This document shows, piece after piece, positions 18,910-51,423 of a DNA stretch of 64,000 bases. The DNA is taken from NCBI GenBank assembly GCA_045653945.1, contig JAZOML010000003.1, positions 7,270 through 71,269 of the forward strand, read 5' to 3'. The translations under genes and the position numbers were made by a program. The notes under the pieces are model-generated. The model was not told where the DNA came from and searched no databases. It saw only the letters and a program-made list of their open reading frames with translations. The DNA is from Eubacteriales bacterium (GTDB taxonomy: Bacteria; Bacillota; Clostridia; Oscillospirales; CAG-272). Each line of letters begins with the position of its first letter. The stretch's first letter is position 1.

Positions 18910-18931
18910 TTGTCTCCAAAATCATTTGGAA

Positions 18932-29832: not shown

Positions 29833-29878
29833 GAGTTTATTCAACCGTACATATCCTTCAAAAAGGCGAAAAACGAAA

Positions 29879-30211: not shown

Positions 30212-30222
30212 CGAGGCAAACT

Positions 30223-30999
30223 ATGGGTATTTTGGATAAACTTCAAGGCGATGGCGGATACGTCTTTGTTTCGCATAGCCACCTTGATATAAAAAAGGTT
30301 CGCACGATAAGAAATTTACTTGAAGAAAAAGGCTTTGAGCCTATACTTTTCTACCTCAAAAGCCTAGACGACAGCGAACAGGATAAAACGGAATTTTTGC
30401 GTTCCCTCATTTACGACGAGATTGATGCAAGGGAATTCTTTTTGTACCTTGACAGCGAAAACGCAAGGAAATCCGATTGGGTACGGCAGGAGCTTGAATA
30501 TATAGAAAAATATGCTCCGCACAAGCTTACAACCGTTGATTTAGAGGAAAACGACGATAGTATAAAAAAGAAAATCGAGGCACTTGCCTCGCGAATGCGC
30601 ATCTTTATTTCCTACTCGATGCAAGACAAGGAAATCGCTCAAAAAATCAAGAAAGCGCTTGTAAATTCCGACTTCAGAGTCTACGACACCCTCGATATTC
30701 CGCCCGGCATCGAGTGGGAATTAAACACGGCAAATATGATAAACGAAGCCTCAAAGGAGGGAATTATTATGTTTATCGTGTCGGAAAAGTCTACAAAATC
30801 CCAAATAATACTCAACGAGTTGGAATACGCACTCAAAATACACGCAAGAATTCTTCCTATTTTCATCGACAAGTGCTACCTCGATGCTAAACAAAATCCA
30901 ATTCTCTTTGCGCTAAGAAACTATCAAGGCTTTTTCTTTGAAAACACACAATGCGATGAAGAAATCAAAAAACTTGTAAAAATACTCCGCAATATATAA
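30223..30999 (+). CDS. tandem TIR-domain protein (two TIR-like domains)
   Basis: Domain 1: GYVFVSHSHLD...SDWVRQELEYI. Domain 2: RIFISYSMQDKEIAQKI...IIMFIVSEKSTKSQIILNELEYA. Both keep the Glu of the TIR catalytic motif. Starts 11 nt after the PPase-like gene. Confidence 0.75.
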   Translation: MGILDKLQGDGGYVFVSHSHLDIKKVRTIRNLLEEKGFEPILFYLKSLDDSEQDKTEFLRSLIYDEIDAREFFLYLDSENARKSDWVRQELEYIEKYAPHKLTTVDLEENDDSIKKKIEALASRMRIFISYSMQDKEIAQKIKKALVNSDFRVYDTLDIPPGIEWELNTANMINEASKEGIIMFIVSEKSTKSQIILNELEYALKIHARILPIFIDKCYLDAKQNPILFALRNYQGFFFENTQCDEEIKKLVKILRNI

Positions 31000-37917: not shown

Positions 37918-38048
37918 ATTTTTTGTTTCCTTTCGGTATAATTCATTACTAAATCATTATACTATATTTGACTAAAAAAGTAAAGAGGTTTTGGCATTTT
38001 TTTGCCGAAATTTTTGAAAAATCAAAGAATACGTCAAAGGAGATTAGT

Positions 38049-39302
38049 ATGAAAAACGACAAAAAAAGCTCCACAAAGGAGAGCAAATCAACACTTATTC
38101 CCAAAAGCAGGATAAAAAGCGAGGACCTTCCTTTTAATAGAGAACTGGCAATAGAGCATCAAGTTCACGGAAATAAAATGACGCACGACGAAGTGGTCGG
38201 TGGCGGTCATACAATCGACGTTTTACAGGGGCAGGGAAGTCAGTTTTCGGATTTTGTATTCGGAAAAAGCGGCTCGCAACCACCCTGCAGTAACAAAGAG
38301 AAGCCCGAAAACGGACATGCAACGCCCAATTATGAGGGTACTGTCGGCGGCGCGGACAAGGTTGGCACAACGCCCAATTACGAGGGCACTGTCGGCGGTG
38401 CGGACAAGGTTGGCGCAACGCCAAATTACGAGGGTACCGTTGGCAAAAAGAGCAGCGACGCAGATAAAAAAAGCAATTCATACGCAATCAAAAGGGAACA
38501 CGCAGAGCCTCTACGCGACAATTTCGGACAAGTACCGCCGGCTGTTAACAGTGTTTACGGAAACACGGATATAAGCAGGCGCACCTACGGAGATTTTAGC
38601 GAAAGCAATTTAAAAAACAGCACCGCTACCGACAACAAAGGCGGCAACAAGGATGAAAAAAACAGCGAAAGCACAGAAAAAAACAAGAAAAAAGACCGCG
38701 CAGTAACGGTAAAAAGCAACAAAAAGCTTATAAAAACCATTGTGATAGCAGGGCAAATCGAGGGACACACTCAGTTACCGCAGGAGCAAAAGGCAACGAA
38801 GTATGAGGAGCTTATCCCACAGCTGATTGAGATAGAGGAAACCGACGAAATCGGCGGACTTTTACTGATTTTGAACACCGTCGGCGGCGACGTCGAAGCA
38901 GGTCTTGCCCTATCCGAGCTTATCGCAGGAATGAAAAAGCCAACCGCTTCCCTTGTGCTCGGCGGTGGGCATTCGATAGGAGTGCCACTCGCAGTTTCGA
39001 CAAAGCGTTCATTTATTGTACCAAGCGCAACTATGACGTTACACCCCGTCCGTGTTACGGGTATGGTTCTCAGCGCTCCGCAAACCTACGTTTATCTTAA
39101 CAATATGCAGGAGCGCATAATAAATTTCGTTTGTTCGCACAGCAGCATAAAGCGGGAGCGTTTCAGTGCCCTTATGCTCGCAAGAGAGGAAATGTCAACA
39201 GATCTCGGTTCGGTTCTCGACGGCAAAAAGGCGGTAGATGAGGGGCTTATAGATACGTTGGGAACACTCAGCGATGCAATGGAGTATCTATCCTCTTTCT
39301 AA
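38049..39302 (+). CDS. ClpP/TepA-like serine protease domain with long disordered N-terminal extension
   Basis: C-terminal part LLILNTVGGDVEAGLALSELIAGMKKPTASLVLGGGHSIGVPLAV...ATMTLHPVR. N-terminal roughly 230 aa is low complexity, with three tandem TPNYEGTVGGADKVG repeats. ATG at 38049 has RBS AAGGAG. Confidence 0.75.
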   Translation: MKNDKKSSTKESKSTLIPKSRIKSEDLPFNRELAIEHQVHGNKMTHDEVVGGGHTIDVLQGQGSQFSDFVFGKSGSQPPCSNKEKPENGHATPNYEGTVGGADKVGTTPNYEGTVGGADKVGATPNYEGTVGKKSSDADKKSNSYAIKREHAEPLRDNFGQVPPAVNSVYGNTDISRRTYGDFSESNLKNSTATDNKGGNKDEKNSESTEKNKKKDRAVTVKSNKKLIKTIVIAGQIEGHTQLPQEQKATKYEELIPQLIEIEETDEIGGLLLILNTVGGDVEAGLALSELIAGMKKPTASLVLGGGHSIGVPLAVSTKRSFIVPSATMTLHPVRVTGMVLSAPQTYVYLNNMQERIINFVCSHSSIKRERFSALMLAREEMSTDLGSVLDGKKAVDEGLIDTLGTLSDAMEYLSSF

Positions 39303-39438
39303 CCGTACTTTTCTTGTAAGAAAAGTACGGTTAGCACCAGCAAGCGAATAATTGATATAGTGTAAATTTAAACTGTATATCACGGCGGCGTAGTAAGAGA
39401 AGTTCTTTTGCCTACTTTTCTTACAAGAAAAGTACGGT
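39303..39438 (+). repeat. full-length mosaic repeat flanked by two core hairpins
   Basis: ccgtacttttcttgtaagaaaagtacgg, then gcgaataattgatatagtgtaaatttaaactgtatatcacggcggcgtagtaagagaagttcttttgc, then ctacttttcttacaagaaaagtacgg. Confidence 0.85.
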
Positions 39439-39453
39439 GGAATATAAAACCGA

Positions 39454-39482
39454 AAAAGCAAGGTTTAAAACCTTGCTTTTTT
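39454..39482 (+). terminator. rho-independent terminator
   Basis: aaaagcaagg-tttaaaa-ccttgctttttt. Confidence 0.65.
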
Positions 39483-39485
39483 ACC

Positions 39486-39514
39486 TTTACAAATGCAAAT
39501 ATTTATGATATAAT
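39486..39514 (+). promoter_or_regulatory. sigmaA promoter of the TIR/LRR operon
   Basis: TTTACA - 17 nt - TATAAT. A leader of about 100 nt follows, containing the inverted repeat gtgtaata...tattacac. Confidence 0.6.
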
Positions 39515-39614
39515 AATAAATAATAAATATCAAAATGTGTAATATATGTTTAAATTCACCGAGTTTAAGATAGAATTCGGATTTAGGTATTACACTTAAA
39601 AAGGAGTAAGCTTT

Positions 39615-40667
39615 ATGTCAACGCCCACACCGTATAGCGGTAGCGAGCCTTTTATATTTCTGAGCTTTTCGGAAAAGGACAGCACTGCCGTATTGCGATT
39701 AATCTCAAAAATGCAAGTCGACGGCTACCGCATCTGGTACGATGACGGCACAAGCCTCGAAGAGAATTATTCTAAAACCGTTGCAGACAAAATAAGCAGC
39801 TGCGAGTTTTTCATCGCAATCTTTACTTCAAGCTTTATTTCCACAGATGCCTGCATTTCTCAGCTTGATATGGCACAGAAGGAAAGAAAAAGCGGCACCG
39901 CAATATTCTTAGAGGAGCTCACCCTCTCGCTGGGTATGAGATTTCGTCTTTTGCAGTTCGACGGCTTTCATAAGTACGCATATACAAACGAAAACGACTT
40001 TTGGGACGAGCTATACGAAAGCGATAATTTCGGATTGTTTAATTTATCCGATGCGCCCAAAAGACCTACCCCCGAAACCTCAAGTCCCAACAAAGATTTT
40101 TTAATAGAGAACGGAGTGCTTTCGGCTTATTCGGGCGATGACGAATACGTCGTCATACCGGAGGGCGTACATAAAATAGACCGTATGGCTTTTGCGTTCA
40201 ACAATAGCATAAAGACCGTCTTTGTACCAAGCTCAATAACGTTTATTGACGAAATGGCGTTTTATCAATGCACAAGCCTTGTTGAGGTTTTCCTGCCCGA
40301 CACTATAAACCATATCGGCGAAAAAGCCTTTGCGGGCTGCACGTCCTTTGCTCGTTTTTTCGCTCCCGAGAAAGTTAAAAAAATACTGCCCGGCACTTTT
40401 TGGGGCTGCACCGCGCTTGTAAGGGTAATTATTAGCAACAGTGTTACAGAGATAGGCGCCCAAGCATTCAAGCTTTGCGAAAATCTTAACGAGGTAGTTA
40501 TCGGTAGCGGACTCACAAGTCTTGCCGCCGACGCCTTTGACGACTGCAAACGTCCGCTTACCATACGTTACAAGGGTACGCGGGAAGCGTGGTATAAAAT
40601 CATAGAAGCTCTCGGCTGGAAAAAGGGCGAGGGAAAATATATAGTTCACTATAACCAAAAGGGCTAA
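39615..40667 (+). CDS. TIR-domain / BspA-type LRR protein (TIR catalytic Glu replaced by Gln)
   Basis: N-terminus PYSGSEPFIFLSFSEKD...GYRIWYDDG...FFIAIFTSSFISTDACISQLDMA (Q83, codon 39861-39863). About six LRRs of the form IPxxVxxIxxxAFxxCxxL follow. Cap YKGTREAWYKIIEALGWKKGEGKYIVHY. RBS AAGGAG. No signal peptide. Confidence 0.8.
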   Translation: MSTPTPYSGSEPFIFLSFSEKDSTAVLRLISKMQVDGYRIWYDDGTSLEENYSKTVADKISSCEFFIAIFTSSFISTDACISQLDMAQKERKSGTAIFLEELTLSLGMRFRLLQFDGFHKYAYTNENDFWDELYESDNFGLFNLSDAPKRPTPETSSPNKDFLIENGVLSAYSGDDEYVVIPEGVHKIDRMAFAFNNSIKTVFVPSSITFIDEMAFYQCTSLVEVFLPDTINHIGEKAFAGCTSFARFFAPEKVKKILPGTFWGCTALVRVIISNSVTEIGAQAFKLCENLNEVVIGSGLTSLAADAFDDCKRPLTIRYKGTREAWYKIIEALGWKKGEGKYIVHYNQKG

Positions 40668-40672
40668 AAATT

Positions 40673-41581
40673 ATGGACAAGATGAATGATTTTGTAATAG
40701 AAGACGGAATGCTGACCGAATACATAGGAGATGGCGGGCGTGTCATTATACCCGACGGTGTCAGAAGTATAGGCGACGAGGCGTTTGCCGCTTGCGAGCC
40801 TATTACGGAAATTTTAATACCAAACACCGTTGTTTCAATAGGAAATAAGGCGTTTGAGGGCTGCGAGGGTATTACCAAAATAACTCTGCCCGACAATCTT
40901 AAATTTATCGGCAAATTTGCATTTGTCGGATGCACCTCTCTTGAAGAAATTAACATTTCGGAAAGCAACTCCGCCTATAAATCGCTTTTCGGAGTGCTCT
41001 ATTCAAAGGACGGAAGAACACTTATTTGCCACCCCGCAGCAAAAAAGGGCGGAACGTTCTTTGTGCCCCATAACGTACAGCGCATAGACCTCGGCGCATT
41101 TTGGAAATGCAAAAGCCTTGAATGTATTATGCTACCGTTCGGCTTAAAGGAAATTTGCTATGGCGCATTTAACGAGTGCGTATCGCTTTCCGTTATTTCA
41201 ATACCAAGCACCGTAACGACGCTTGGCGGACTTGCCTTCGGCTCCTGCAAGGCGCTGACCTCGATAACCCTGCCAAAGAGCATAGTTGAAATATCAAACT
41301 TCACCTTTTCGTACTGTACCGGACTTAAAAGCTTCAAGGTACATAACGGAATAAAGAAAATCGGCAACTATGCGTTTTTTAACTGCAAAAATCTTACCGA
41401 GATATATATTGGCAGCTCCGTCAATTCACTAGGCGAAAGCGCACTTTCCTATTGCAACAGTCCGCTTACCGTAAAATACGCAGGCTCAAAGCCGACCTTT
41501 TATAAGCTCATTGAAAAGCAGGGCTGGAAAAAGGGCGAGGGTAAATACATAGTATATTACAACCAGGAAGAGCCTACATAA
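40673..41581 (+). CDS. BspA-type LRR protein, no signal peptide
   Basis: MDKMNDFVIEDGMLTEYIGDGGRVIIPDGVRSIGDEAFAAC... About nine repeats. Cap YAGSKPTFYKLIEKQGWKKGEGKYIVYY. Starts 5 nt after the upstream stop. Confidence 0.8.
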   Translation: MDKMNDFVIEDGMLTEYIGDGGRVIIPDGVRSIGDEAFAACEPITEILIPNTVVSIGNKAFEGCEGITKITLPDNLKFIGKFAFVGCTSLEEINISESNSAYKSLFGVLYSKDGRTLICHPAAKKGGTFFVPHNVQRIDLGAFWKCKSLECIMLPFGLKEICYGAFNECVSLSVISIPSTVTTLGGLAFGSCKALTSITLPKSIVEISNFTFSYCTGLKSFKVHNGIKKIGNYAFFNCKNLTEIYIGSSVNSLGESALSYCNSPLTVKYAGSKPTFYKLIEKQGWKKGEGKYIVYYNQEEPT

Positions 41582-41601
41582 AAGAAAGCGAAATACCGAA
41601 A

Positions 41602-42396
41602 ATGAACGAGCTACACGATTTTAATTTCGAGGACGAGGCGATTTGCGGATACACCGGCAAGTCAAACGACGTCGTTATCCCCGACGGAATAGAGCATATA
41701 AGACACACGGCGTTCAGCCATTACGAAAGACTGACCTCTCTTACTGTTCCAAGCAGCGTCAAAAAAATAGGCGATCTTGCATTTTCGGGCTGTCGAGGAC
41801 TTAAAAAAATAACCTTAAGCGAGGGACTTGAGGAAATCGGCTACGGCGCCTTCCGTGAGTGTACAGAGATAACGGAAATCGTTATACCGAGCACAGTAAA
41901 GAAAATAGGGCGCGAAGCGTTTGCCGCTTGTTATAGCCTGACCTCTATCACACTTCCCCCCGACCTTACCGAGCTTAAAGAGGGTGCGTTTTCGGGCTGC
42001 CATAGCCTGCCCGCCATTGACCTGCCGAAGGGAAGTACCAAAATAGGCGCAAGTACATTTGCCTCTTGCAAGGCACTGAGCGAGCTGAAAATACCCGACG
42101 GTGTTACCGAAATAGAGGAACGAGCCTTTTGCAACTGTCCGGGACTTACTGTATTTGAAATTCCCGATGGCGTTGTAAAGCTCGGCAAAAGAGCATTTTG
42201 GAAATGCGAAAATCTACATACGCTAATCATCGGACGGGGACTTAAGAGCATCGGGCAGGGCGCATTTGAGGATTGCCCCTCACTCAAGGTAATAAAATAC
42301 GCATCCTCAAAGCGAGATTTTGAAAAAATCAAAAAGCCAACCACGTGGAAAGATGACCTCAAAGGCTACCAAGTAGATTTTAACTGTAAGAACTGA
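41602..42396 (+). CDS. BspA-type LRR protein, no signal peptide
   Basis: HDFNFEDEAICGYTGKSNDVVIPDGIEHIRHTAFSHYERLTSLTVPSSVKKIGDLAFSGC... Cap YASSKRDFEKIKKPTTWKDDLKGYQVDF. Confidence 0.8.
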   Translation: MNELHDFNFEDEAICGYTGKSNDVVIPDGIEHIRHTAFSHYERLTSLTVPSSVKKIGDLAFSGCRGLKKITLSEGLEEIGYGAFRECTEITEIVIPSTVKKIGREAFAACYSLTSITLPPDLTELKEGAFSGCHSLPAIDLPKGSTKIGASTFASCKALSELKIPDGVTEIEERAFCNCPGLTVFEIPDGVVKLGKRAFWKCENLHTLIIGRGLKSIGQGAFEDCPSLKVIKYASSKRDFEKIKKPTTWKDDLKGYQVDFNCKN

Positions 42397-42479
42397 ATAA
42401 AAGGAGCGTTTCGTGTATTTTACACACCTTATACGGATAAGAGTCATCCGCACAACCGCAACTAAAAAGTGAGATAAAA

Positions 42480-44102
42480 ATGATAAATTTAAAAGACTTC
42501 GTAATCGAAGGGGACACCCTCGTATCATACAAAGGCAGAGAAAAAAACCTTAAAATCCCTTTTCTTGTAACTAAAATAGCGGAAAAGGCGTTTTTCGGCA
42601 ACGACTTTATCAAAACCCTTGCCCTGCCAATAAGCGTTACAAGTATTGCGCCTCGTGCGTTTTTCGGCTGCACGTCGCTTGAGAGCATATACCTACCACC
42701 CTCACTTGAGAAAATAGGCGACGAGGCGTTTAAAAAATGCTCCTCGCTTAAATACGTGCTTTTCGGCGGCAACGAGAATGAGTGGGAAAGGGTGGAAAAG
42801 GGTAACCTTTGGTGCACCCCAACGGGCGAATTTTGTATGAAATTCAACTGTCCTTCGAGTATACAAAACAACCCAAAGGACTTTATAATTGAGGACACCA
42901 CGCTCAACACCTACACAGGCACCGACGCACACGTAATAGTCCCCGACGGCATAACGGTTATCGGAGATTGGGCGTTTGATGAATCGCATAACCTACAAAC
43001 AGTTTACCTTCCTGCAAGCATTACGGAAATAGGAATATACGCCTTTGCACACTGCCCCGACTTTGCCGTAATTTATTTTGGCGGCAGCAACGAGCAGTGG
43101 GAGAATATAATTACGGGGATATTTTGGGATTTCGGCGTAGAGGATTACACCGTAGTTTGCGACTGTAAGCCGAATACTGCCGAGGACTTCGTCATCGAGA
43201 ACGGAGAGCTGCTCAAATACGTAGGCGACAGTCGGGCAGTCAGCATCCCCTACGGCGTAAATAAGGTCGCCGACGGTGCGTTTGCGGAATCAGACTTTGT
43301 TACGTCGCTTATCTTCCCCGACACCGTCGATACAATAACGGCAGGCTCACTTGAAGGACTCCGTAACCTCAGAGTCGTTCAAACGGGCGACGGCGTTACC
43401 GAAATACTTCCGAATACCTTTTCTATGTACCCCGAAATTGAGGCGGCTATCCTCGGTAAAAGCGTACACACCGTTGAAAGCTTTGCGTTTTGGTGCTGCA
43501 CAAAGCTAAAAAAGGTCATCTTTTCCGAGGGTGTTTACCACCTTCACAACGGAGCATTTTCAGGTTGCACAGCGCTTAAATGGGTAACGCTTCCGAGCAC
43601 CCTTGAGGAAATAGGCGACCAAGCATTTTTCGGTTGTACTGCGCTTGAACGGGTAGACTTTGACTGCGGAGTCAGACGTATCGGCTGGAGCGCCTTTGAC
43701 GGCTGCACCTCGCTTAAATGGATAGACCTGCCCGAAACGCTCAACCAAATCGGTTGGCACGCATTCAGCGGATGCACCTCTCTTGAAAAGGTAATACTTC
43801 ACGACAGACTTTACATAATCGGACGAGGCGCATTTGAAGAGTGCGCACTGACGGAAATAGATATTCCCGAAAAAACGCATACGATAGGAGATAAAGCGTT
43901 TTTCGGATGCCGAAAGCTTAAAACCGTAAATATCGGCAGTGATTTGCACACCCTCGGCAAGCACGCATTTGAGGGCTGCGACCACCCCGTTAACATAACC
44001 TTTAACGGCACCCGCTTCAGATGGAGCTGTATAATCCGCGAGCTTGACTGGAAAAAGGGCGAGGGAAAATACATCCTGCGCTACCTGAAAAAAGAAGACT
44101 AA
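42480..44102 (+). CDS. BspA-type LRR protein with three LRR-plus-cap modules
   Basis: Three units each begin (K/E)DF(V/I)IE...L..Y.G. They end in the caps GGNENEWERVEKGNLW, GGSNEQWENIITGIFW and NGTRFRWSCIIRELDWKKGEGKYILRY. Confidence 0.8.
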   Translation: MINLKDFVIEGDTLVSYKGREKNLKIPFLVTKIAEKAFFGNDFIKTLALPISVTSIAPRAFFGCTSLESIYLPPSLEKIGDEAFKKCSSLKYVLFGGNENEWERVEKGNLWCTPTGEFCMKFNCPSSIQNNPKDFIIEDTTLNTYTGTDAHVIVPDGITVIGDWAFDESHNLQTVYLPASITEIGIYAFAHCPDFAVIYFGGSNEQWENIITGIFWDFGVEDYTVVCDCKPNTAEDFVIENGELLKYVGDSRAVSIPYGVNKVADGAFAESDFVTSLIFPDTVDTITAGSLEGLRNLRVVQTGDGVTEILPNTFSMYPEIEAAILGKSVHTVESFAFWCCTKLKKVIFSEGVYHLHNGAFSGCTALKWVTLPSTLEEIGDQAFFGCTALERVDFDCGVRRIGWSAFDGCTSLKWIDLPETLNQIGWHAFSGCTSLEKVILHDRLYIIGRGAFEECALTEIDIPEKTHTIGDKAFFGCRKLKTVNIGSDLHTLGKHAFEGCDHPVNITFNGTRFRWSCIIRELDWKKGEGKYILRYLKKED

Positions 44103-44115
44103 AGGAGATTTGAAT

Positions 44116-45963
44116 ATGGAAATTCCAACCCCATATAAAGGAAACGAGCCATTTATCTTCGTCAGCTACGCGCATAAGGACGCGCCCACCGTTTACCCAA
44201 TCCTTGAAAAGCTACTGGGGGACGGCTACCGCATCTGGTACGACGAGGGCATTCCGCTTTCAAGCATTTGGGAGGACGTAATCCTTGAAAAGCTCCACAC
44301 CTGCGAATACTTTATTTTTTTCGTATCGGAAGCATCCGTCAAATCGGAGTGGTGTCAAAGGGAGCTACAAATCGCTCACGAAAAATCAAAGAAAATAGCC
44401 CCTATATACTTGGAGGACGCAGCTCTTACGGATATTATGCACAGCATTTTGCATAAGCTCCAAGCCCTTTTGAAATACAAATACGATGACGAAAGTAACT
44501 TCTTTACCAACCTCTACGACCAGGAGGACATAAAGCAATTCAGACCTCAGGATTTCGATATCGTCGGAGGCGTGCTTACGAAATACAACGGCAGGGAGGA
44601 AAACATCGTAATCCCCGAGCTTGTAAAACAAATAGGGCAAAAGGCTTTTTACAGTAACAGGCAGATAAAAAGCGTACACGTACCCTTTGGCGTAAAAAAA
44701 ATAGAGAGCCTTGCCTTTTTTGATTGCAAAAGCTTAAACGTTATATCCTTTACCGACGGCATAACCGAAATCGGCGCTCAGGCATTTTCGTATTGTGAGA
44801 AGCTGGAAAGCCTTGACTTTCCGGACAGTATCGAGAGCATAGGCTACGGGGCATTCAGTAATTGCACCTCGCTTTGCTCGGTATCCTTGCCAAGCAAAAT
44901 AAATGTGATACCGCAATGGGCTTTTGCCGACTGCCGCTCTCTTACCAATATAGCTATACCAAGCTCGGTTACACAAATAGACAGCTTCGCCTTCAATAAT
45001 TGCTACTCACTTGAAAGCGTTGATATTCCCGTAAGCATAACGGAAATAGGCGGCTCTGCCTTCAAAAGCTGCTCGTCGCTTTCCTTAATCAATTTCGGCG
45101 GCACAAAAAAACAGTGGGATGCCATTGAAAAGTATGAAACGTGGGATGCGGACACCCCAAGCTACACCGTAAAAATCAATAAAAACGGAGCATTTAAAAT
45201 CTTTGACGGTACGTTAAAGGGATATGACGGAAACGAAAAAAACGTAACCGTACCGAGCAAGGTCAAAAAAATAGGCAACGGAGCATTTTCGGATAACGAG
45301 CATATAGAAGCTATAACCCTGCCGCGCTCCATTACCGAAATAGGCGACGGCGCATTTTCGACGTGCAGAGAACTTAAAAGCATATGCTTACCGAACAGGC
45401 TCTCAAAAATCGGAGAAAACGCATTTTGCTCCTGTACAAGCCTTGAAAGCATAACTATTCCCAAAAAAATCAAAAAAATACCGTGGGCGGCCTTCAGAAG
45501 CTGTCATAACCTACGGCTTGTCGAACTTCCGCCAAATCTCACCGAAATAGGAAAATACGCATTTTGCTACTGCGAGAAGCTTGAAAGCATCGTATTACCA
45601 AACAAAATAAAGAAAATAGAGATGAGCGCATTTGCAAGCTGTGGACTTTCAAGTATAAGCCTGCCAACAGGCTTAACCGAAATAAGCACTATGACCTTTG
45701 CGAGCAACCCATTTGAAGCAATTAAAATACCGAGCGGCGTTACCGAAATAGGTAGCTTTGCGTTTTTGTGCTGCACAAAGCTTTCAAGCATCACACTCCC
45801 CCTCTCGCTCAAAAAAATAGGCGACGGCGCATTTAAACTTTGCTCTGCCCTTTCGGATATTTACTTTTGCGGCACGAAAGAGCAGTGGGAGGCAATAGAA
45901 AAGGAGGAAGGCTGGGACAGTGAAGCAGGCAGCTACACCGTCCACTTTGAATGCAAGGAGTAA
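44116..45963 (+). CDS. TIR-domain / BspA-type LRR protein (two LRR modules)
   Basis: PYKGNEPFIFVSYAHKD...GYRIWYDEG...YFIFFVSEASVKSEWCQRELQIA (Glu kept). Caps GGTKKQWDAIEKYETW and CGTKEQWEAIEKEEGW. ATG at 44116 has RBS AAGGAG; the track TTG is at 44110. Confidence 0.8.
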   Translation: MEIPTPYKGNEPFIFVSYAHKDAPTVYPILEKLLGDGYRIWYDEGIPLSSIWEDVILEKLHTCEYFIFFVSEASVKSEWCQRELQIAHEKSKKIAPIYLEDAALTDIMHSILHKLQALLKYKYDDESNFFTNLYDQEDIKQFRPQDFDIVGGVLTKYNGREENIVIPELVKQIGQKAFYSNRQIKSVHVPFGVKKIESLAFFDCKSLNVISFTDGITEIGAQAFSYCEKLESLDFPDSIESIGYGAFSNCTSLCSVSLPSKINVIPQWAFADCRSLTNIAIPSSVTQIDSFAFNNCYSLESVDIPVSITEIGGSAFKSCSSLSLINFGGTKKQWDAIEKYETWDADTPSYTVKINKNGAFKIFDGTLKGYDGNEKNVTVPSKVKKIGNGAFSDNEHIEAITLPRSITEIGDGAFSTCRELKSICLPNRLSKIGENAFCSCTSLESITIPKKIKKIPWAAFRSCHNLRLVELPPNLTEIGKYAFCYCEKLESIVLPNKIKKIEMSAFASCGLSSISLPTGLTEISTMTFASNPFEAIKIPSGVTEIGSFAFLCCTKLSSITLPLSLKKIGDGAFKLCSALSDIYFCGTKEQWEAIEKEEGWDSEAGSYTVHFECKE

Positions 45964-45966
45964 AAA

Positions 45967-46476
45967 ATGGACTTTAAAATCAGCTACGGAGTTCTTAATA
46001 TGTATACGGGCGAGGGCGGTAATGTTACCGTCCCCGACGGCGTAACGAAAATAGAGGCAGGAGCGTTTATCGGACACAAGACCTTGACGGGAGTTTACCT
46101 GCCCGATAGCGTTACGGAAATTGGCGGAAAAGCATTTGCGAGCTGCTCCGCGCTTGAGTTTGCCGAGCTTGGACAAGGAATAGAGTTTGTTGGCAAATGG
46201 GCATTTGCATACTGCTCATCACTCAAAAAGCTCTCCCTGCCCGAGGGCGTAAAACGAATCGGCTGGGGCGCGTTTTCAAGCTGCACGTCGCTTAAAAGCC
46301 TAACCCTGCCCTCTACACTCACCCAGATAGACTGGTGCATAATTGAATTTTGCAAGTCGCTAAAGGAAATCAATTACCGTGGTACTCGCGAGCAGTGGGA
46401 AGCCATCGAAAAGGACGAGGACTGGGATACAGATGCAAGCGAGTACACCATAAACTTTAACTTCAAGGGAAAATAA
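45967..46476 (+). CDS. single-module BspA-type LRR protein
   Basis: MDFKISYGVLNMYTGEGGNVTVPDGVTKIEAGAFIGHKTL... Cap YRGTREQWEAIEKDEDWDTDASEYTINFNFKGK. Starts 3 nt after the upstream stop. Confidence 0.8.
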   Translation: MDFKISYGVLNMYTGEGGNVTVPDGVTKIEAGAFIGHKTLTGVYLPDSVTEIGGKAFASCSALEFAELGQGIEFVGKWAFAYCSSLKKLSLPEGVKRIGWGAFSSCTSLKSLTLPSTLTQIDWCIIEFCKSLKEINYRGTREQWEAIEKDEDWDTDASEYTINFNFKGK

Positions 46477-46495
46477 CTTCAAAGGAGAATATACG

Positions 46496-48199
46496 ATGAC
46501 AAAGCCTGTTCCATACGAGGGAAACGAGCCGTTTATTTTCATAAGCTACTCACACAAGGATAGAGAAGAGGTATTCAAGGTTCTCTTTAACCTGCAAGAA
46601 AACGGATATCGTTTTTGGTACGACGAGGGCATTGACTCCGGCACTGAGTCGAACGAGGTTATAGCCACCACTATCGAAAAGTGCGACTATTTCATTGCGT
46701 TTATTTCCGCGAACTCACTTGTATCCAACACCTGCAGGCTCGAGCTTAACTTTGCACACAATTTGGATAAAAATATACTGATTATTTACCTTGATAACGC
46801 AACGCTGCCAATCGTTATGAGGATGCGATTCGGACGACTGCGGGCAATACATAAATATAAATATGAAAACGAGGATGACTTTTACAAAAGGCTTTATAAA
46901 TCCGATGGTATAAAAATTTTTAAAAACGTAACTCAACCCGACTGCAATCCCGATGATTTTGAAATAGTTGACGGCGAGCTTGTTAAATATGAAGGAAATA
47001 GTGCAAATATTTTTATCCCGGACAGTGTAACGAGCATAGGCGAGTGTGCTTTCCTTGATTGCGACTCACTTACAAGCATAACTATCCCGAGTAGTGTAAC
47101 TAGTATTGGCTATCGTGCGTTTGAGGATTGCACATCGCTTACAAACGTAACTATCCCCGATAGTGTAACGAGCATAGACTCTTATGCGTTTGAGGATTGC
47201 ACATCACTTACAAGCATAACTATCCCGGTTAGTGTAACGAGCATAGGCAATTATGCGTTCTCAGGTTGCACCTCACTTACAAGCATAACTATCCCGGGTA
47301 GTGTAACGAGCATAGGATTTTCTGCGTTCTCGCGTTGCTCCTCGCTTACAAGCATAACTATTCCCGATAGTGTAACTAGGATTTGCTATCATGTGTTCAA
47401 GGATTGCACATCACTTACAAGCATAAAAGTTGATGAAAACAACACTGTCTATAAATCCGAAAACGGAGTTTTGTATACCAAAGACGGCAAAGCTTTAATT
47501 TATTATCCTGTCGGTAAAACCGACACAAGCTTTGTTATTCCCGATAATGTAGAGAGCATTGGCTATTCTGCGTTCTTTGGTTGCGACTCACTTACAAGAG
47601 TAACTATTCCCGATAGTGTAGAGAGCATAGGCTCTTTTGCGTTTGAGGATTGCACATCGCTTACAAGCATAAACGTTGATGCAAACAACACTGTCTATAA
47701 ATCCGAAAACGGCGTTTTGTATACCAAAGACGGCAAAGCTTTAATTTATTATCCTGTCGGTAAAACCGACACAAGCTTTATTATTCCCGACAGTGTAGAG
47801 AGCATTGGCTATTCTACGTTCAAGGATTGTGAATCACTTACAAGCATAAACGTTGATGTAAATAACACCGTCTATAAATCCGAAAACGGAGTTTTGTACA
47901 CCAAAGACGGTAAAACTTTAATCCAATTTCCCGCCGGTAAAACCGACACAAGCTTTGTTATTCCAAACGGCATAACCGGTATTGAGGATTTTGCCTTCAG
48001 TGATAGTGCACTTGAAAGCATAACTATTCCAAGCAGCGTAAACAGTATTGGCGAAACGGCGTTCGATACTTGCTTTTTCCTTAATACTATTAATTTTTGC
48101 GGCACACGTAAACAGTGGAACGCCATTGAAAAGGGCGAGGAATGGGACTACACCATCTCCGCTAACTACAAAATAAACTTCAACTACAAGGGAAAATAA
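46496..48199 (+). CDS. TIR-domain / BspA-type LRR protein with highly repetitive LRR region
   Basis: PYEGNEPFIFISYSHKD...GYRFWYDEG...YFIAFISANSLVSNTCRLELNFA. Then 23-aa repeats SLTSITIPxSVTSIGxxAFxxCT, three YKSENGVLYTKDGK units, and cap CGTRKQWNAIEKGEEW...NFNYKGK. Confidence 0.8.
   Translation: MTKPVPYEGNEPFIFISYSHKDREEVFKVLFNLQENGYRFWYDEGIDSGTESNEVIATTIEKCDYFIAFISANSLVSNTCRLELNFAHNLDKNILIIYLDNATLPIVMRMRFGRLRAIHKYKYENEDDFYKRLYKSDGIKIFKNVTQPDCNPDDFEIVDGELVKYEGNSANIFIPDSVTSIGECAFLDCDSLTSITIPSSVTSIGYRAFEDCTSLTNVTIPDSVTSIDSYAFEDCTSLTSITIPVSVTSIGNYAFSGCTSLTSITIPGSVTSIGFSAFSRCSSLTSITIPDSVTRICYHVFKDCTSLTSIKVDENNTVYKSENGVLYTKDGKALIYYPVGKTDTSFVIPDNVESIGYSAFFGCDSLTRVTIPDSVESIGSFAFEDCTSLTSINVDANNTVYKSENGVLYTKDGKALIYYPVGKTDTSFIIPDSVESIGYSTFKDCESLTSINVDVNNTVYKSENGVLYTKDGKTLIQFPAGKTDTSFVIPNGITGIEDFAFSDSALESITIPSSVNSIGETAFDTCFFLNTINFCGTRKQWNAIEKGEEWDYTISANYKINFNYKGK
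47066..47410 (+). repeat. five tandem 69-bp (23-codon) repeats inside the TIR-LRR gene
   Basis: Units start at 47066, 47135, 47204, 47273 and 47342. Each reads tc(a/g)cttacaa(g/a)c(a/g)taactat(c/t)cc....gtgtaac.ag.at.... Confidence 0.85.
47429..47975 (+). repeat. three near-identical ~120-130-bp repeats inside the TIR-LRR gene
   Basis: gttgatg.aaa.aacac.gtctataaatccgaaaacgg.gttttgta.accaaagacgg.aaa.ctttaat... begins at 47429, 47675 and 47852. Confidence 0.85.
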
Positions 48200-48218
48200 C
48201 TTCAAAGGAGAAAAGGCT

Positions 48219-50312
48219 ATGGCAATTTTACGTCCGTACAAGGGCGATAAGCCGTTCATTTTCATAAGCTATGCACATAAGGACAAGGGCAGTGTGCATA
48301 AAATTATCAAAAATATGCTTGATTGCGGTTACCGAGTTTGGTACGACGAGGGCATTGACCCCGGCACCGAGTGGGACGACACCATTGCCGAGCACGTCGA
48401 AAACTGTGGCTATTTTATTGCGTTCATTTCAAAAAATTATCTTGCCTCGGACAACTGTATGGACGAGCTTGACTACGCACGCGACTCAAACAGAAAGCGA
48501 CTGCTCGTTTATCTTGAAAACGTATCCCTGCCGGGCGGTATGAAAATGCGACTCAACCGCCTTCAGGCTATACATAAGTACAAATATGAAAGCGAGGACG
48601 ACTTTTTCGAGAAGCTTTATACGGCTGACCAAATCGGGAATTTCAAGGAAGAAGTAGATTTGCCGCCTATAAAAGAAAAGCCCACCGCAAAAGTCAAATC
48701 AGCGACAAAGAAAACGCCTTCGCCCAAAAAAGCCGAGCAAAAGGAAATAGTTATCACCTATCCCAAGGTTAACATAGCACCGCCTGTCATAACACCCACA
48801 GAGGATTTTGACTGGGAGCTTCTTTTCCCGACAAGCAAGGAAAAGACCACTTTCGCTTTCTCGGACTACAAAAAACCACCCACCAGCCTTCTTAAGCAGG
48901 ACGATTTTATGCCCGACGCACCGCTTGACGAAATACATAAAATAATAAGTGTCCTGCAAGAGTCCTTTGAAGCATTTAAAATTAAAATAAAGGACGTAAG
49001 CTGCACCGTTGCCCCTTCCTTTTTACGCTTCGAGGTAACCCCCGAGGCGGGTGTTTCGCTCAAGAAAATACTAGATTTACAGTTTGATTTAAGCGCTGCG
49101 CTAGGCTTACACGGACTTGCCACAGGAAACGTTCGCATTGCCATAATACCCGGCAAACGTGCAGTAGGAATAGAGGTTCCGTTAAAATCCGCCGCTAACG
49201 TTCCGCTTCGCGGTCTTTTGGAAGACCCAAAATTTAAATCGGCAAATAGCCCCGTAACCGTTTGTCTTGGCAGAGATTCCGCGTGCGAGCCGGTATTTGC
49301 CGACATAAACGAAATGCCTCATCTTCTTATCGGCGGTCAAACAAGGTCGGGTAAATCTACTCTTATCAACTGTATGATAACCAGCCTTATTTATAAGTCC
49401 TCCCCCGACGACGTTCGCCTGCTGCTTATCGACCCGAAAATGGTAGAATACCGTATGTATAATCTTCTGCCGCACCTTATTATGCCTGTTGTTGACAACG
49501 CTCAAAGGGCGGTGTCGGCGCTTAAATGGGTAGTTGACGAAATGGACCGCCGCTATAAGCTGCTTGAAAAGGCTCAGGCAAGAAACCGCAAGGAATACTA
49601 CGAAATCGGAGATAACAACCCCGATTTTGAGCCAATGCCCCATTTGGTGGTAATAATAGACGAGCTTGCCGACCTTATGCTTCAAGCAAAGAATCCCATC
49701 GAGGAATATATTAACCGCATAGCCACCTTGGCAAGAGCGTGCGGGATTCACCTCATAATCTGCACTCAAAGACCGACGGTTGACGTTATTACGGGCGTTA
49801 TCAAAGCGAATATCCCCTCAAAAATCGCTTTCAAGGTAGCTTCGCACGTCGACTCAAGAACCGTTCTCGGCGTACCCGGAGCTGAAAATCTTATAGGGCA
49901 CGGCGATATGCTTTATATCGGCCCGACAGGAAACGAGATGAGAATTCAGGGCGCAAACGTTGACGTAAACGAAATTAAGAGCATCGTTAAATACGTTATA
50001 GAAAATAACGGCAGCGCAAAGTTCGATCCCGACGTATTTAAAGCCGTACAAAAATCGGAAACCGTTTCCCGCCTTGGCGGAGATGCCGACTTTGAGATGC
50101 TTTGCAGCGCAACAGAGCTTTTCCTTGAAATGGGTATAGCCAGTTTAAGCCTTATGCAAAGACACCTGCGCATCGGATTCAACAAAGCCGCAAACCTATT
50201 TGATAAGCTCGTAGAAATAGGCTTTATATCACAAAGAAACGGCTCAAAGCCTGCCACAGTGCTCATAACAAAAGAAAAGTATCTTGAATGGAAAAAAAGA
50301 TATACGGAATAA
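48219..50312 (+). CDS. TIR-domain fused to a complete soluble FtsK/SpoIIIE DNA-translocase motor (alpha, beta, gamma domains), no membrane anchor
   Basis: - aa 1-135 form a TIR domain: PYKGDKPFIFISYAHKD...GYRVWYDEG...YFIAFISKNYLASDNCMDELDYA, with E83 at 48465-48467.
- A Lys/Pro linker follows.
- Motor motifs: Walker A HLLIGGQTRSGKST (about 49335-49358), Walker B HLVVIIDELADL, ICTQRPTVDVITGVIKANIPSKIAFKVAS..DSRTVLG..GAENLIGHGDMLY.
- Gamma winged helix: SLMQRHLRIGFNKAANLFDKLVEIGFIS. Confidence 0.85.
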   Translation: MAILRPYKGDKPFIFISYAHKDKGSVHKIIKNMLDCGYRVWYDEGIDPGTEWDDTIAEHVENCGYFIAFISKNYLASDNCMDELDYARDSNRKRLLVYLENVSLPGGMKMRLNRLQAIHKYKYESEDDFFEKLYTADQIGNFKEEVDLPPIKEKPTAKVKSATKKTPSPKKAEQKEIVITYPKVNIAPPVITPTEDFDWELLFPTSKEKTTFAFSDYKKPPTSLLKQDDFMPDAPLDEIHKIISVLQESFEAFKIKIKDVSCTVAPSFLRFEVTPEAGVSLKKILDLQFDLSAALGLHGLATGNVRIAIIPGKRAVGIEVPLKSAANVPLRGLLEDPKFKSANSPVTVCLGRDSACEPVFADINEMPHLLIGGQTRSGKSTLINCMITSLIYKSSPDDVRLLLIDPKMVEYRMYNLLPHLIMPVVDNAQRAVSALKWVVDEMDRRYKLLEKAQARNRKEYYEIGDNNPDFEPMPHLVVIIDELADLMLQAKNPIEEYINRIATLARACGIHLIICTQRPTVDVITGVIKANIPSKIAFKVASHVDSRTVLGVPGAENLIGHGDMLYIGPTGNEMRIQGANVDVNEIKSIVKYVIENNGSAKFDPDVFKAVQKSETVSRLGGDADFEMLCSATELFLEMGIASLSLMQRHLRIGFNKAANLFDKLVEIGFISQRNGSKPATVLITKEKYLEWKKRYTE

Positions 50313-50314
50313 GT

Positions 50315-50346
50315 AAAAAAGACGGGCTAAAAACCCGTCTTTTTTA
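50315..50346. terminator. strong bidirectional terminator ending the TIR/LRR operon
   Basis: aaaaaagacgggc-taaaaa-cccgtctttttt. Confidence 0.75.
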
Positions 50347-50664
50347 TAGCAAATCCTTGCAAACCGTCAATTTAATAAGCAACCCCGTATCATCGTCCTG
50401 CGCTGACTTGTTGCGACGGATAGCTCCACATTTCTTACACCTCGACACAATAATATAACCCTTCTTGGGATCAGGTAGGCTCTGAACGGGAACAAGCAAC
50501 CCACCGCAATCAGAGGCTCTGTCGCCAGGATTTACGTCAACGTGAAGCGAGTGAAGACAAAAGGGACAGTGATTGCGAGAGGTGTAACCAAGCGGCGACA
50601 CATCGCTACCACAATTTGCACATATAAAGCCACTATCGTTTTTTTGAAATCGCTTATCTTCCAT
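50344..50664 (-). CDS. RNHCP-domain zinc-ribbon protein
   Basis: FICANCGSDVSPLGYTSRNHCPFCLHSLHVD...CGG...CKKCG. Confidence 0.75.
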   Translation of the reverse strand: MEDKRFQKNDSGFICANCGSDVSPLGYTSRNHCPFCLHSLHVDVNPGDRASDCGGLLVPVQSLPDPKKGYIIVSRCKKCGAIRRNKSAQDDDTGLLIKLTVCKDLL

Positions 50665-50796
50665 AAAGCTCTCCTTTTAATAGGTAAATTAACACTTTGG
50701 TAAAAAACCCATAATCTTGTATTTATATTTTTTTGGTATCCTTACTAGGAATTAGTATTTTGATATACGGAATATACATTTGAAAGGATAAATAAT

Positions 50797-51117
50797 ATGT
50801 TTACCAATAAGAAAAGAATTTTTTCTATCCTTATTTTCGCGCTTGTTCTTGCACTTCTCACTTGCGCTATGATTGGATGCGGCACAGGAGTTGAGCACGA
50901 CCACGACGGAGACGGCGTTGCCGACCACACCGATTCAGAGCACAAAACCCTTTGGGATAAATGGGTAGCTTGGTGCGCAACTACTACGGGACAAATCTGG
51001 GGCTTCAGCCTCTCGGGCGCCTTCCTTGTTGCAGCTATCGTTTTCATAGTCCTTTGGATTCCCAAAAAGACCGACAAAAAGGAAAAGAAGGCTGTTGCAA
51101 AAAGGAAAGACCAATAA
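50797..51117 (+). CDS. small lipoprotein/membrane protein with His/Asp-rich segment
   Basis: Signal peptide plus LLTCAMIGCG lipobox-like region, HDHDGDGVADHTDSEH, C-terminal TM helix and Lys-rich tail. Confidence 0.6.
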   Translation: MFTNKKRIFSILIFALVLALLTCAMIGCGTGVEHDHDGDGVADHTDSEHKTLWDKWVAWCATTTGQIWGFSLSGAFLVAAIVFIVLWIPKKTDKKEKKAVAKRKDQ

Positions 51118-51132
51118 TTAAATCTTCAACCC

Positions 51133-51165
51133 AAGCACACTGCATTTTTGCGGTGTGCTTTTTCT
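51133..51165 (+). terminator. rho-independent terminator
   Basis: aagcacac-tgcatttttgcg-gtgtgctt followed by ttt. Confidence 0.55.
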
Positions 51166-51175
51166 TTTTCCCCCC

Positions 51176-51416
51176 GCTTTCTGAAGAAAGCTTGGCAAAG
51201 ACTTCTCTTACCACGCATCCGTGATATATAGTTTAAATTTTGCACTGTATCAATTATTTGCCAGCGGGTGCTACCCGCCGCTACCTTGATATGTAGTTTA
51301 AATTTTGCACTTTATCAATTATTTGCCAGCGGGTGCTACCCGCCGCCACCGTGATATGTAGTTTAAATTTTACACCAAATGGATTGTATGCCATCGGGTG
51401 CTACCCGCTCGGTGCT
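51176..51416 (+). repeat. core hairpin plus three tandem 65-bp units of the mosaic repeat
   Basis: gctttctgaagaaagc (51176-51191), then ttggcaaagacttctcttaccacgc. The unit tgatat.tagtttaaatttt.cac...atcaattatttgccagcgggtgctacccgccgc.acc starts at 51222, 51287 and 51352. Each unit carries the mini-hairpin gcgggt-gct-acccgc. Confidence 0.85.
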
Positions 51417-51423
51417 ACCGACC

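Follow-up and report, generated by a model that had tools for sequence, protein, structure and literature searches.

What does an operon do that joins Toll/interleukin-1 receptor (TIR) domains, BspA-type leucine-rich repeats (LRRs), and an FtsK-like DNA motor? Such an operon, of eight genes, lies about 6 kb from dnaA (at 56522) in an Eubacteriales bacterium of the CAG-272 lineage (Clostridia, Oscillospirales). It was picked out by an initial annotation made from the sequence of a 64,000-nucleotide (nt) stretch of contig JAZOML010000003.1 (assembly GCA_045653945.1), which we call the window and to which the positions below refer. We give roughly even chances to the explanation that the operon is a conflict (immune-like) locus, encoded on the chromosome, cytoplasmic, and based on TIR domains, in which clustering-activated TIR enzymes that degrade nicotinamide adenine dinucleotide (NADases) would be combined with LRR and DNA-motor sensors.

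Operon structure and domain content

Eight open reading frames (ORFs), g1 to g8, occupy positions 39615-50312 on the plus strand and are separated by 5, 20, 83, 13, 3, 19, and 19 nt (Table 1). The sigma-70-type promoter in front of them is the top-scoring site in a scan of 13 kb (38500-51500), and an AAGGAG ribosome-binding site precedes g1. The closing terminator, AAAAAAGACGGG-ctaaaaa-CCCGTCTTTTTT, was read directly from the sequence; the automatic terminator scan missed it because the T-run forms part of the stem. Terminator-like sites inside the operon are weak and occur at chance frequency (15 found, 17.2 expected from shuffled sequences). The Rfam scan revealed no RNA elements in or beside the operon, and its GC content, 0.43-0.47, is similar to that of the flanks. 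Thus the transcription unit is as it had initially been described, with one near-consensus promoter, eight same-strand ORFs with exactly these gaps, and a single strong terminator, whose hairpin is visible in the sequence and works in both directions.

Domains were called by Pfam against the curated cut-offs, which is 28 bits for TIR_2. The products of g1, g5, g7, and g8 start with a TIR_2 domain scoring above this cut-off, and those of g1 to g7 match LRR_5 with 92 to 375 bits and contain ten confirmed module starts of the form DFxIxxGxLxxYxG. In g8, the alpha, motor, and gamma domains of FtsK are all found, both the Walker A (GQTRSGKS, K379) and the Walker B (VVIIDELA, D481/E482) motifs are intact, and the C-terminal 470 residues are 44-48% identical to Clostridial FtsK. 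In the recognition helix of its gamma domain, the sequence is N-K-A-A-N..D, as against N-R-A-A-R..E in E. coli. Neither the FtsK_4TM domain (PF13491) nor any transmembrane segment is present in g8; the TIR domain occupies that position. Hence the three main domain assignments of the initial annotation, namely TIR-like starts in four products, ten BspA-type modules distributed over seven products, and a fusion of TIR with a complete FtsK/SpoIIIE motor in the last gene, are all borne out.

TIR domains

The AlphaFold2 (AF2) model of residues 1-150 of g8 has a predicted local distance difference test (pLDDT) score of 88.8. Its Foldseek matches include the TIR domains of SPARTA, SARM1, RPP1, AbTir, and SpbK, with template modeling scores of 0.6-0.76, and the SpbK filament structure is found among them at rank 39. 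The head of g1 was also modeled as a TIR domain by AF2 and structure search. Since the profile scores pass the cut-off and the predicted fold matches known TIR domains, the naming of the N-terminal domains as TIR is upheld, and the g8 head, as modeled, is a bona fide TIR fold. The closest solved sequence is that of the CRISPR-associated NADase Cat1, in which the catalytic motif is aligned (SDNCMDELDYA in g8, SDWCWDELEQA in Cat1). We also take the C..EL motif of the heads to resemble the SxWCLxEL motif of plant TIR domains.

With the four heads as a profile, 250 proteins were retrieved, and the best 120 of these share the consensus PYxGxxPYIFISYxHKD...GYRVWYDEGIDPGTEWD...NCKDEL. The catalytic glutamate is present in all these 120 metagenomic proteins and in all 101 members from GTDB genomes, that is, in 221 of 221. 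In the operon, it is kept as E83 in the C..EL helix of g5, g7, and g8. The head of g1 reads SFSEKD and C..QL, with the histidine replaced by glutamate (E20), tryptophan by tyrosine (Y52), and the catalytic glutamate by glutamine (Q83). Therefore the catalytic part of the motif ascribed earlier to four products stands for g5, g7, and g8 but not for g1, whose head is very probably catalytically dead, which would make g1 a pseudo-enzyme or an adaptor. An external hidden Markov model (HMM) of this TIR family, built excluding the sequences of the window, assigns 282 bits to g8, 233 to g7, 185 to g5, and 143 to g1. The PADLOC models of ThsB match the heads weakly and at the level of the domain (E = 1e-7 to 4e-9). 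By these comparisons, the heads form a separate, tightly conserved Clostridial TIR subfamily with an invariant catalytic glutamate, and by analogy with known TIR domains we infer that they are NAD-consuming or signal-producing enzymes.

LRR bodies and localization

In the AF2 model of g1 (pLDDT 83.6), residues 145-158 form a disordered linker behind the TIR domain, and an LRR solenoid with a C-terminal cap follows. The LRR part is modeled with pLDDT above 90 and matches the structures 6mlx, 4gt6, 4h09, and 4fd0, which are crystal structures of TpLRR and of LRR_5 proteins from gut bacteria. In the TIR-LRR proteins generally, only some 15 linker residues separate the TIR domain from the repeats.

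None of the eight products has a 19-residue window with a Kyte-Doolittle value above 1.5, and at their hydrophilic N-termini the domain starts at once. No LPXTG motif was found in them, and no SLH, dockerin, or cell wall (CW)-binding domain by Pfam; each LRR protein contains 5-22 cysteines. The hydropathy and motif scans thus agree with the earlier view that these products, lacking signal peptide, transmembrane helix, and wall anchor, are intracellular, and we predict that the LRR proteins are cytoplasmic. In this they differ from the classical BspA adhesins, which carry surface signals (signal peptide, lipobox, wall or S-layer anchor).

The LRR structures closest to these carry cell-surface annotations, and NCBIfam yields weak matches to EssC/EccC and to an adhesin, HupY/LrrG. 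Both facts would fit an export locus, in which the LRR proteins are BspA-like adhesins that lack classical signals and are exported by an ATPase of the FtsK/SpoIIIE family, like EssC/EccC in type VII secretion. We find this barely credible, because g8 has an alpha and a DNA-binding gamma domain, a single ATPase domain, and no transmembrane or FHA domain, and scores 122 bits with the EssC model, whose cut-off is 778. Further points against export are the N-terminal TIR domains and the cysteines of the LRR proteins and their lack of anchors and secretion motifs. No WXG100, EsaA, or EssB gene was found among the profiled flanking genes, the rest of the window not having been scanned for them. Membership in the type VII secretion family fails on the same points.

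Another intracellular-type signaling domain also occurs on BspA-type LRRs: metagenomic proteins P0245 and P0258-P0267, among others, are fusions of Ser/Thr protein kinase domains with LRR_5 arrays (about 983 amino acids, aa). In PHROGs, the phage families phrog_35892 and phrog_18805, which have no assigned function, match the LRR_5 modules strongly, at up to 237 bits, and the match takes in the C-terminal cap; therefore phages also encode BspA-type LRR proteins of this kind.

Fusions of the TIR head in other genomes

A head-specific pattern scan of the GTDB species genomes (185,579 species) produced at least 184 confirmed stretches, almost wholly from gut and rumen Clostridia (Oscillospiraceae, Lachnospiraceae, Acutalibacteraceae, Saccharofermentans, Ruminococcus, and Acetatifactor), with the addition of Solobacterium. 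Among the 101 head-bearing ORFs of the best 80 loci, Pfam identifies as partners of the head MORN repeats (16 proteins), Sel1 (9), FtsK (4), TPR (about 3), LRR_5 (3), TM2 (2), FtsZ (1), and the STAND-type NTPase domain NPHP3_N (1); most of the remaining proteins have no recognizable partner. The metagenomic members add fusions with FHA and with the FtsK gamma domain alone. Two to four head genes are found in 16 of the 80 loci, and in 14 of these they are adjacent and on the same strand. Judging from these sequences, the operon is one case of a general pattern, tandem arrays of genes composed of a TIR head and a variable body; paralog clustering of this kind is expected of expanding sensor-effector families.

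Fusions of the head with FtsK are rare: they form about 13 clusters at 90% identity and, among 15 billion proteins, about 8-10 at 50%, and are present in 5 of the 185,579 GTDB species. Their neighbors vary. In loci L001 and L003, which represent the same site as the window, these are LRR and TIR-LRR genes; in L005, a TIR-MORN gene; in L006 and L008, a genuine ftsK, a Mbeg1-like lipase gene, and a short FtsK gene. In L110 and L113, the TIR-FtsK gene is located 35 nt downstream of mnmG and followed by a MatE gene, and in L007 it has no related neighbors. Conversely, arrays of TIR-LRR_5 and LRR_5-only genes exist without FtsK in L106 and L108. The co-occurrence of TIR-LRR and TIR-FtsK genes, which the initial annotation named as a test of its reading, is therefore restricted to the window, L001, and L003, that is, to two species. 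The sequences indicate that the eight-gene set is specific to this lineage, put together locally out of modules of a wider TIR-X family, and not a conserved unit.

Some of these loci deserve a separate description. In L006 (4509-11995) and L008 (4498-11992), the order is ftsK (about 1050 aa), the Mbeg1-like lipase gene, the short FtsK gene (alpha and motor, 352 aa), TIR-FtsK, and DUF436. The TIR-FtsK proteins of these loci have lysine replaced by methionine in Walker A and aspartate by serine in Walker B, so that their motor is probably inactive, while the TIR head is fully conserved. In a check for recent duplication of the host ftsK, they were 46-49% identical to the product of the adjacent ftsK and no closer to it than to other FtsK genes. 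The TIR-FtsK genes of L110 (8200-11965) and L113 (8200-11668), on the same strand as mnmG, belong to a distant lineage (37% identity), which constitutes the second association of the family with the origin region; the gamma domain is missing in L113. In L136 (4905-6308), the head is attached to a full FtsZ (Tubulin and FtsZ_C) with the GTP-binding signature GGFTGTG in place of GGGTGTG, and the truncated P0158 is a second example of TIR-FtsZ. In L192 (4054-6112), a 219-aa protein consists solely of the TIR head and the FtsK gamma domain, a DNA-binding winged helix; its gene adjoins a MurJ/MatE-type gene, and MatE genes also adjoin TIR-FtsK in L110 and L007.

Partners such as these raise an alternative in which the TIR signaling is cellular, non-immune, and tied to the chromosome or to division. 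The head, a shared module for assembly or signaling, would then link divisome and nucleoid proteins and scaffold repeats, and g8, as a soluble translocase like SftA, would have its state signaled via NAD-derived products or through TIR-TIR scaffolding. This agrees with the range of fusions (FtsK, FtsK gamma alone, FtsZ, FHA, TM2, MORN), with the strong conservation of the head across families, with origin-proximal positions in two lineages (near mnmE, parAB, and noc in the window, and right after mnmG in L110 and L113), with the MurJ/MatE neighbor of the TIR-gamma gene, and with a stable, syntenic locus whose LRR genes are under purifying selection. We nevertheless consider it unlikely. With about 10 clusters at 50% identity and the five species counted above, TIR-FtsK is too rare for a core role; bodies that are 28-59% identical and differences in gene content between conspecific strains are atypical for housekeeping; and an invariant catalytic glutamate favors an enzyme over a mere scaffold. 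To our knowledge, every characterized intracellular bacterial TIR acts in phage defense, which we also count against a cellular role. If it were true, it would be the first non-immune role of an intracellular bacterial TIR enzyme.

Other searches for relatives were negative. As a single query against genome contigs, g8 returned solely canonical FtsK genes, mostly from Lactiplantibacillus, and a scan of JGI metagenomes with g4 produced no match.

Variation between strains

The locus L003 comes from the same species as the window: the flanks are 96-99% identical at the nucleotide level, serS 99.8%, and jag 100%, and the synonymous divergence (dS) of the flanks is 0.03-0.13. An exact look-up of the jag protein returned three contigs only. 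In the operon, g1 to g4 and g6 are 95-97% identical in L003, which lacks g5 (44108-45963 has no counterpart in the blastn map) and the LRR body of g7. Upstream of g1 it carries, as L001 does, an extra gene for a 127-aa LRR protein, located in L003 between the ClpP-like gene and the operon. The order g1-g3-g4-g6-TIR-FtsK and the tight spacing are retained across the two species.

The largest differences concern TIR-FtsK. The L003 protein is 50% identical to g8, with dS of 1.85. The TIR head (residues 1-140) is 92.9% identical between the window and L001, 63.6% between the window and L003, and 64.3% between L001 and L003; the corresponding values for the FtsK body (alpha, motor, residues 561-625, and gamma) are 28-59%, 29-56%, and 71-79%. 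Heads and bodies therefore have different histories, with a conserved effector and a swapped DNA-handling body, and on this evidence TIR heads and FtsK bodies recombine independently. The nearest relative of the head on the L003 TIR-FtsK is the head of g7 (73% identity). The cap-intergenic-head junction is duplicated (repeats D8/D9, 85% identity, spacing 1723 nt), from which we conclude that g7 was inserted by local duplication. The body of g7 contains 8-10 tandem 69-nt units, each a 23-aa LRR, with about 80% identity (families D1 to D3, 46945-48073), and three 246-nt units with up to 85% identity; this expansion is recent, and slippage or recombination could make the LRR longer or shorter.

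Ratios of nonsynonymous to synonymous divergence (dN/dS) of 0.16-0.49 place every gene under purifying selection. Hypervariable LRR receptors under positive selection were considered and rejected, as dN/dS never exceeds 1. By sequence, variation proceeds through gene gain and loss and through swapping of modules and alleles, and is concentrated on the TIR-bearing genes and the FtsK body. Such variation is typical of conflict loci, without proving one.

The same data can be explained without any joint system, by a paralog array of cytoplasmic LRR_5 proteins, of unrelated or unassigned function, that happens to lie upstream of an autonomous TIR-FtsK gene, with heads spread to some LRR genes by local recombination and no coupling in function. 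TIR-FtsK is indeed solitary in L007 and L110, LRR_5 arrays live without it in L106 and L108, g7 stems from a local duplication, and the head of g1 is decaying. On the other side of the balance, a single promoter and a single terminator enclose genes whose order and 3-20 nt spacing are kept in two species, g1 is retained at dN/dS of 0.19 in spite of its dead head, and L005 independently pairs TIR-FtsK with TIR-MORN. This explanation, too, seems to us improbable, if worth keeping in mind.

Comparison with known systems

The initial annotation could not match the operon to a named defense system, nor could we: PADLOC HMMs match single domains of the eight proteins (ThsB-like TIR; SspH, mad8, and HerA for the motor) with no system partners, and NCBIfam matches are at the domain level with nothing near the cut-offs. 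The claimed absence of a STAND/NB-ARC ATPase is likewise sustained, as nSTAND6 scores 16.7 bits in g8 against a cut-off of 27.7, over the P-loop only. In the literature covered, which did not extend to subscription journals, no description of TIR-FtsK or of bacterial TIR-LRR_5 was found. The logic of a TIR NADase combined with a sensor is already established; TIR-FtsK and TIR-LRR_5 arrays are undescribed as far as we found.

Two systems provide the closest parallels. In SIR2-HerA, the assembly of a ring-forming ATPase controls NADase activity (PMC11514289). This anti-phage system (Nezha) resembles g8 in coupling an NAD-degrading effector to a ring ATPase of the FtsK-HerA superfamily. It differs in that the effector of g8 is TIR, not SIR2, that its ATPase is a true FtsK rather than HerA, having both an alpha and a gamma domain, and that both parts reside in one polypeptide, encoded beside seven LRR genes. 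Membership in SIR2-HerA or DUF4297-HerA fails, as SIR2 is absent, the PADLOC HerA match over the P-loop region is marginal (1.1e-6), and the Pfam score of DUF87/HerA in g8 is 20.3 bits against a cut-off of 23.2. The second parallel is SpbK of the Bacillus subtilis element ICEBs1, an abortive-infection sensor made of a single TIR protein, where the dodecameric phage portal YonE clusters the TIR domains and thereby activates the NADase (PMC12847820). Like SpbK, g5 and g7 would be cytoplasmic TIR NADases without an NTPase. SpbK has no LRR, whereas the presumed sensors of the operon are BspA-type LRR solenoids, and the operon encodes several paralogs together, some TIR-less or with a dead TIR. For g5 and g7, we take the tail-tube-sensing DSR2 to be a further likeness.

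Other candidates are more distant. The heads resemble Thoeris in their weak ThsB matches, but form a separate subfamily, and Thoeris membership fails because neither ThsA (SIR2-SLOG or Macro/transmembrane) nor another signal-receiving effector is present among the genes of the operon and its flanks. Membership in Ssp, Dnd, or MADS fails as well: the matches to SspH and mad8 cover the motor only (residues 258-591), and no SspFG, DndFG, or MADS partner genes were found. The STAND or NLR-like systems (Avs, bNACHT, TIR-NLR) are excluded by the lack of a STAND module between TIR and the repeats. Animal Toll-like receptors (TLRs) and plant TIR-type NLR receptors (TNLs) also unite ligand-binding LRRs and TIR in one protein. 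In the window, however, the TIR domain is N-terminal and the LRR C-terminal, the proteins are cytoplasmic and lack both the transmembrane helix of TLRs and the NB-ARC of TNLs, and the repeats are of the BspA/LRR_5 class; common descent of the fusion is not implied. Finally, g8 shares its alpha, beta, and gamma domains and Walker motifs with canonical FtsK/SpoIIIE and with the soluble SftA, and differs from canonical FtsK in that TIR replaces the septal anchor of four transmembrane helices and in that its body is hypervariable within the species. Taken by sequence, the operon proteins are true members of the TIR, LRR_5, and FtsK families, each atypical in its own way: a head in g1 that has lost its catalytic residue, LRRs lacking an export signal, and an anchorless FtsK.

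Possible function of the operon

We suggest the following scheme for a TIR-based conflict locus. The TIR heads would be silent as monomers and would fire when clustered. In g5 and g7, clustering would follow from the binding of a multimeric ligand, for instance a phage structural protein, by the LRR body, by the logic of SpbK and the YonE portal or of DSR2 and the tail tube; in g8, it would follow from hexamerization of the FtsK body on DNA, in the manner of SIR2-HerA. Either NAD would then be depleted or a nucleotide signal produced, with growth arrest as the end. The least-supported step is the role of the dead TIR-LRR protein g1 and of the LRR-only proteins g2, g3, g4, and g6, kept under purifying selection, which could be regulators, adaptors, or specificity partners.

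This scheme is supported because the heads are of the catalytic type and are fused elsewhere to ligand-binding repeats (MORN, Sel1, TPR, LRR_5); because differences in gene content and in TIR-FtsK between conspecific strains are typical of conflict genes; because 16 of the 80 loci contain several TIR genes; because the gene order is retained in two species, with purifying selection on all genes; because a second lineage, L005, pairs TIR-FtsK with a TIR-repeat protein, TIR-MORN; and because SpbK and SIR2-HerA are experimental precedents for clustering-activated NADases.

Several observations weigh against it. The head is 55-68% identical across Oscillospiraceae, Lachnospiraceae, and Erysipelotrichales, which could indicate a conserved cellular role, and the TIR-FtsK genes that directly follow mnmG, together with the head on FtsZ, hint at a link to the chromosome or to division. 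In one TIR-FtsK subclade, Walker A and B are both dead, so that DNA pumping is not universally needed. The dN/dS of the LRR-only genes relative to L001, 0.16-0.17, is close to the 0.145 of mnmE and unlike that of receptors chasing phage proteins. No recognizable defense island is present; the operon stands among housekeeping genes beside oriC, where synteny is kept between species, and the flanking genes profiled include neither an integrase or transposase nor a known defense gene. A scan of viral contigs with TIR-specific patterns brought no confirmed relative, and thus no phage link comes from that search; the PHROGs matches are limited to LRR_5-like families without assigned function and FtsK-like morons.

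A more elaborate version, which we think distinctly unlikely, proposes mixed TIR assemblies. The LRR receptors and the dead g1 adaptor would nucleate or gate the activation of TIR-FtsK as the executor, making a receptor-adaptor-executor TIR cascade that works without a STAND NTPase and acts on DNA. In addition, TIR-FtsK, TIR-FtsK-gamma, and TIR-FtsZ across the family would be integrated decoys for divisome proteins that trip NAD signaling when a phage attacks division or DNA segregation. The exchange of heads between LRR and FtsK bodies, the purifying selection on g1, and the ATPase-dead TIR-FtsK adjoining a genuine ftsK are consistent with such assemblies and decoys but do not show them.

If the locus works as proposed, the known sensors of TIR-based immunity in bacteria would be joined by two more, an NTPase-free LRR receptor and an effector-fused DNA translocase, and no bacterial system so far would come closer than TIR-LRR to the way in which TLRs and plant TNLs combine LRR and TIR. 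There are many candidate loci of a comparable kind. The heads would represent a large reservoir of modular genes, a TIR head with one or another body, in gut and rumen Clostridia, organisms nearly absent from experimental work on defense, and the head/body mosaics of conspecific strains are natural chimeras for the dissection of specificity.

Genomic setting and neighboring genes

The GyrB protein is at best 76-78% identical to that of any GTDB species representative; the matches are gut MAGs carrying the labels Clostridia, Eubacteriales, or Oscillospiraceae, which makes the host an uncultured gut Clostridium. The genes of the region are arranged as mnmG (minus strand, displaced to 24321-26198), then, further on, a cluster of three small genes upstream of rsmG (Table 1), rsmG, noc, parA, parB, serS, a gene for a protein of no assigned family (unk246), PTAC (minus), the ClpP-like gene, g1 to g8, RNHCP (minus), a gene for a small transmembrane protein, mnmE, jag, and yidC (all minus), and dnaA. 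The initial annotation had placed the operon inside a normally invariant block between mnmE and rsmG. It does lie between these genes, but the interval also holds noc, parA, parB, serS, PTAC, and the ClpP-like and RNHCP genes. Nor is it a recent insertion into such a block, as the locus is syntenic across species and variable in content. A phage or mobile origin was rejected on three grounds: the lack of a relative in viral contigs, the lack of integrase and transposase genes among the profiled flanking genes, and the flank-like GC content.

Table 1. Features of the operon and its surroundings. Positions are those of the window; identities are to the orthologs in L003 (same species) and L001 (second species).
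Feature	Position	Strand	Length, aa	Description	Pfam scores, bits	Identity in L003	Identity in L001	dN/dS
LRR_5 mini-protein (LRR121)	29467-29832	+	121	Single module; 38% identical to the 127-aa LRR gene of L003/L001
unk110	29879-30211	+	110	No family match
Double-TIR protein	30223-30999	+	258	ThsB_TIR + TIR_2; just upstream of rsmG
Hairpin terminator	39453-39481			13-pair stem and T-run; ends the ClpP-like transcript, insulating the operon
Sigma-70-type promoter	39486-39514	+		TTTACA, 17-nt spacer, TATAAT, extended -10 TG; 11 of 12 matches
g1	39615-40667	+	350	Degenerate TIR head (E20, Y52, Q83), disordered linker, one LRR_5 module, C-terminal cap	TIR_2 40.8; LRR_5 103	95%		0.19 (L003)
g2	40673-41581	+	302	LRR_5 only, predicted cytoplasmic; no transmembrane helix or signal peptide	LRR_5 181.9	97%	no ortholog
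g3	41602-42396	+	264	LRR_5 only	LRR_5 204	95%	80%	0.16 (L001)
g4	42480-44102	+	540	Three LRR_5 modules, three DFxIxxGxLxxYxG starts	LRR_5 283	97%	79%	0.17-0.2
g5	44116-45963	+	615	TIR head (E83, W52 kept), two LRR_5 modules; alternative TTG start at 44110	TIR_2 70.3; LRR_5 374.6
g6	45967-46476	+	169	Single LRR_5 module and cap	LRR_5 92	96%	78%
g7	46496-48199	+	567	TIR head (E83 kept, W52 replaced by S); LRR_5 body of 69-nt and 246-nt repeats, recently amplified	TIR_2 67.2; LRR_5 260
g8	48219-50312	+	697	TIR head (E83), Pro/Lys-rich linker, FtsK alpha, motor, gamma; no membrane anchor	TIR_2 80.2; FtsK_alpha 54; FtsK_SpoIIIE 186.3; FtsK_gamma 60.1
Intrinsic terminator	50315-50346			Bidirectional; common to the convergent RNHCP gene
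RNHCP gene	50344-50664	-		Pfam 1e-30; convergent with the operon

The double-TIR protein is 31% identical (E = 3e-33) to a double-TIR protein in the LRR_5/TIR-LRR_5 array of the unrelated L108. It is possible that the three genes at 29467-30999 form a satellite cluster that functionally belongs to the operon.

The block 29467-50312, which starts with LRR121, takes in rsmG, noc, parAB, and serS, and ends with g8, is on the plus strand, left of the origin, and mnmE, jag, and yidC are on the minus strand; GC skew is about zero over 38-50 kb and negative in the flanks. Skew and orientation suggest that 29467-50312 is an inverted, head-on segment, with mnmG split from mnmE and rsmG.

The ClpP-fold protein encoded upstream of the operon (37968-39302, plus strand, 444 aa) is extended at its N-terminus by a long stretch of low complexity, within which are three tandem TPNYEGTVGGADKVG-like repeats. 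It is syntenic in L001 and L003, where it is 72-92% identical, and evolves faster than its neighbors. Two palindromic copies of about 30 nt (ACTTTTCTTGTAAGAAAAGTACGG and a variant; 39300-39335 and 39405-39440) flank the spacer between this gene and the operon promoter; in L003, a 127-aa LRR gene occupies the interval instead. Elsewhere in the window, two T-box leaders (13078-13319 and 16832-17074, both on the minus strand) precede minus-strand genes, and tRNA-Tyr and tRNA-Thr are located at 18825-19006.

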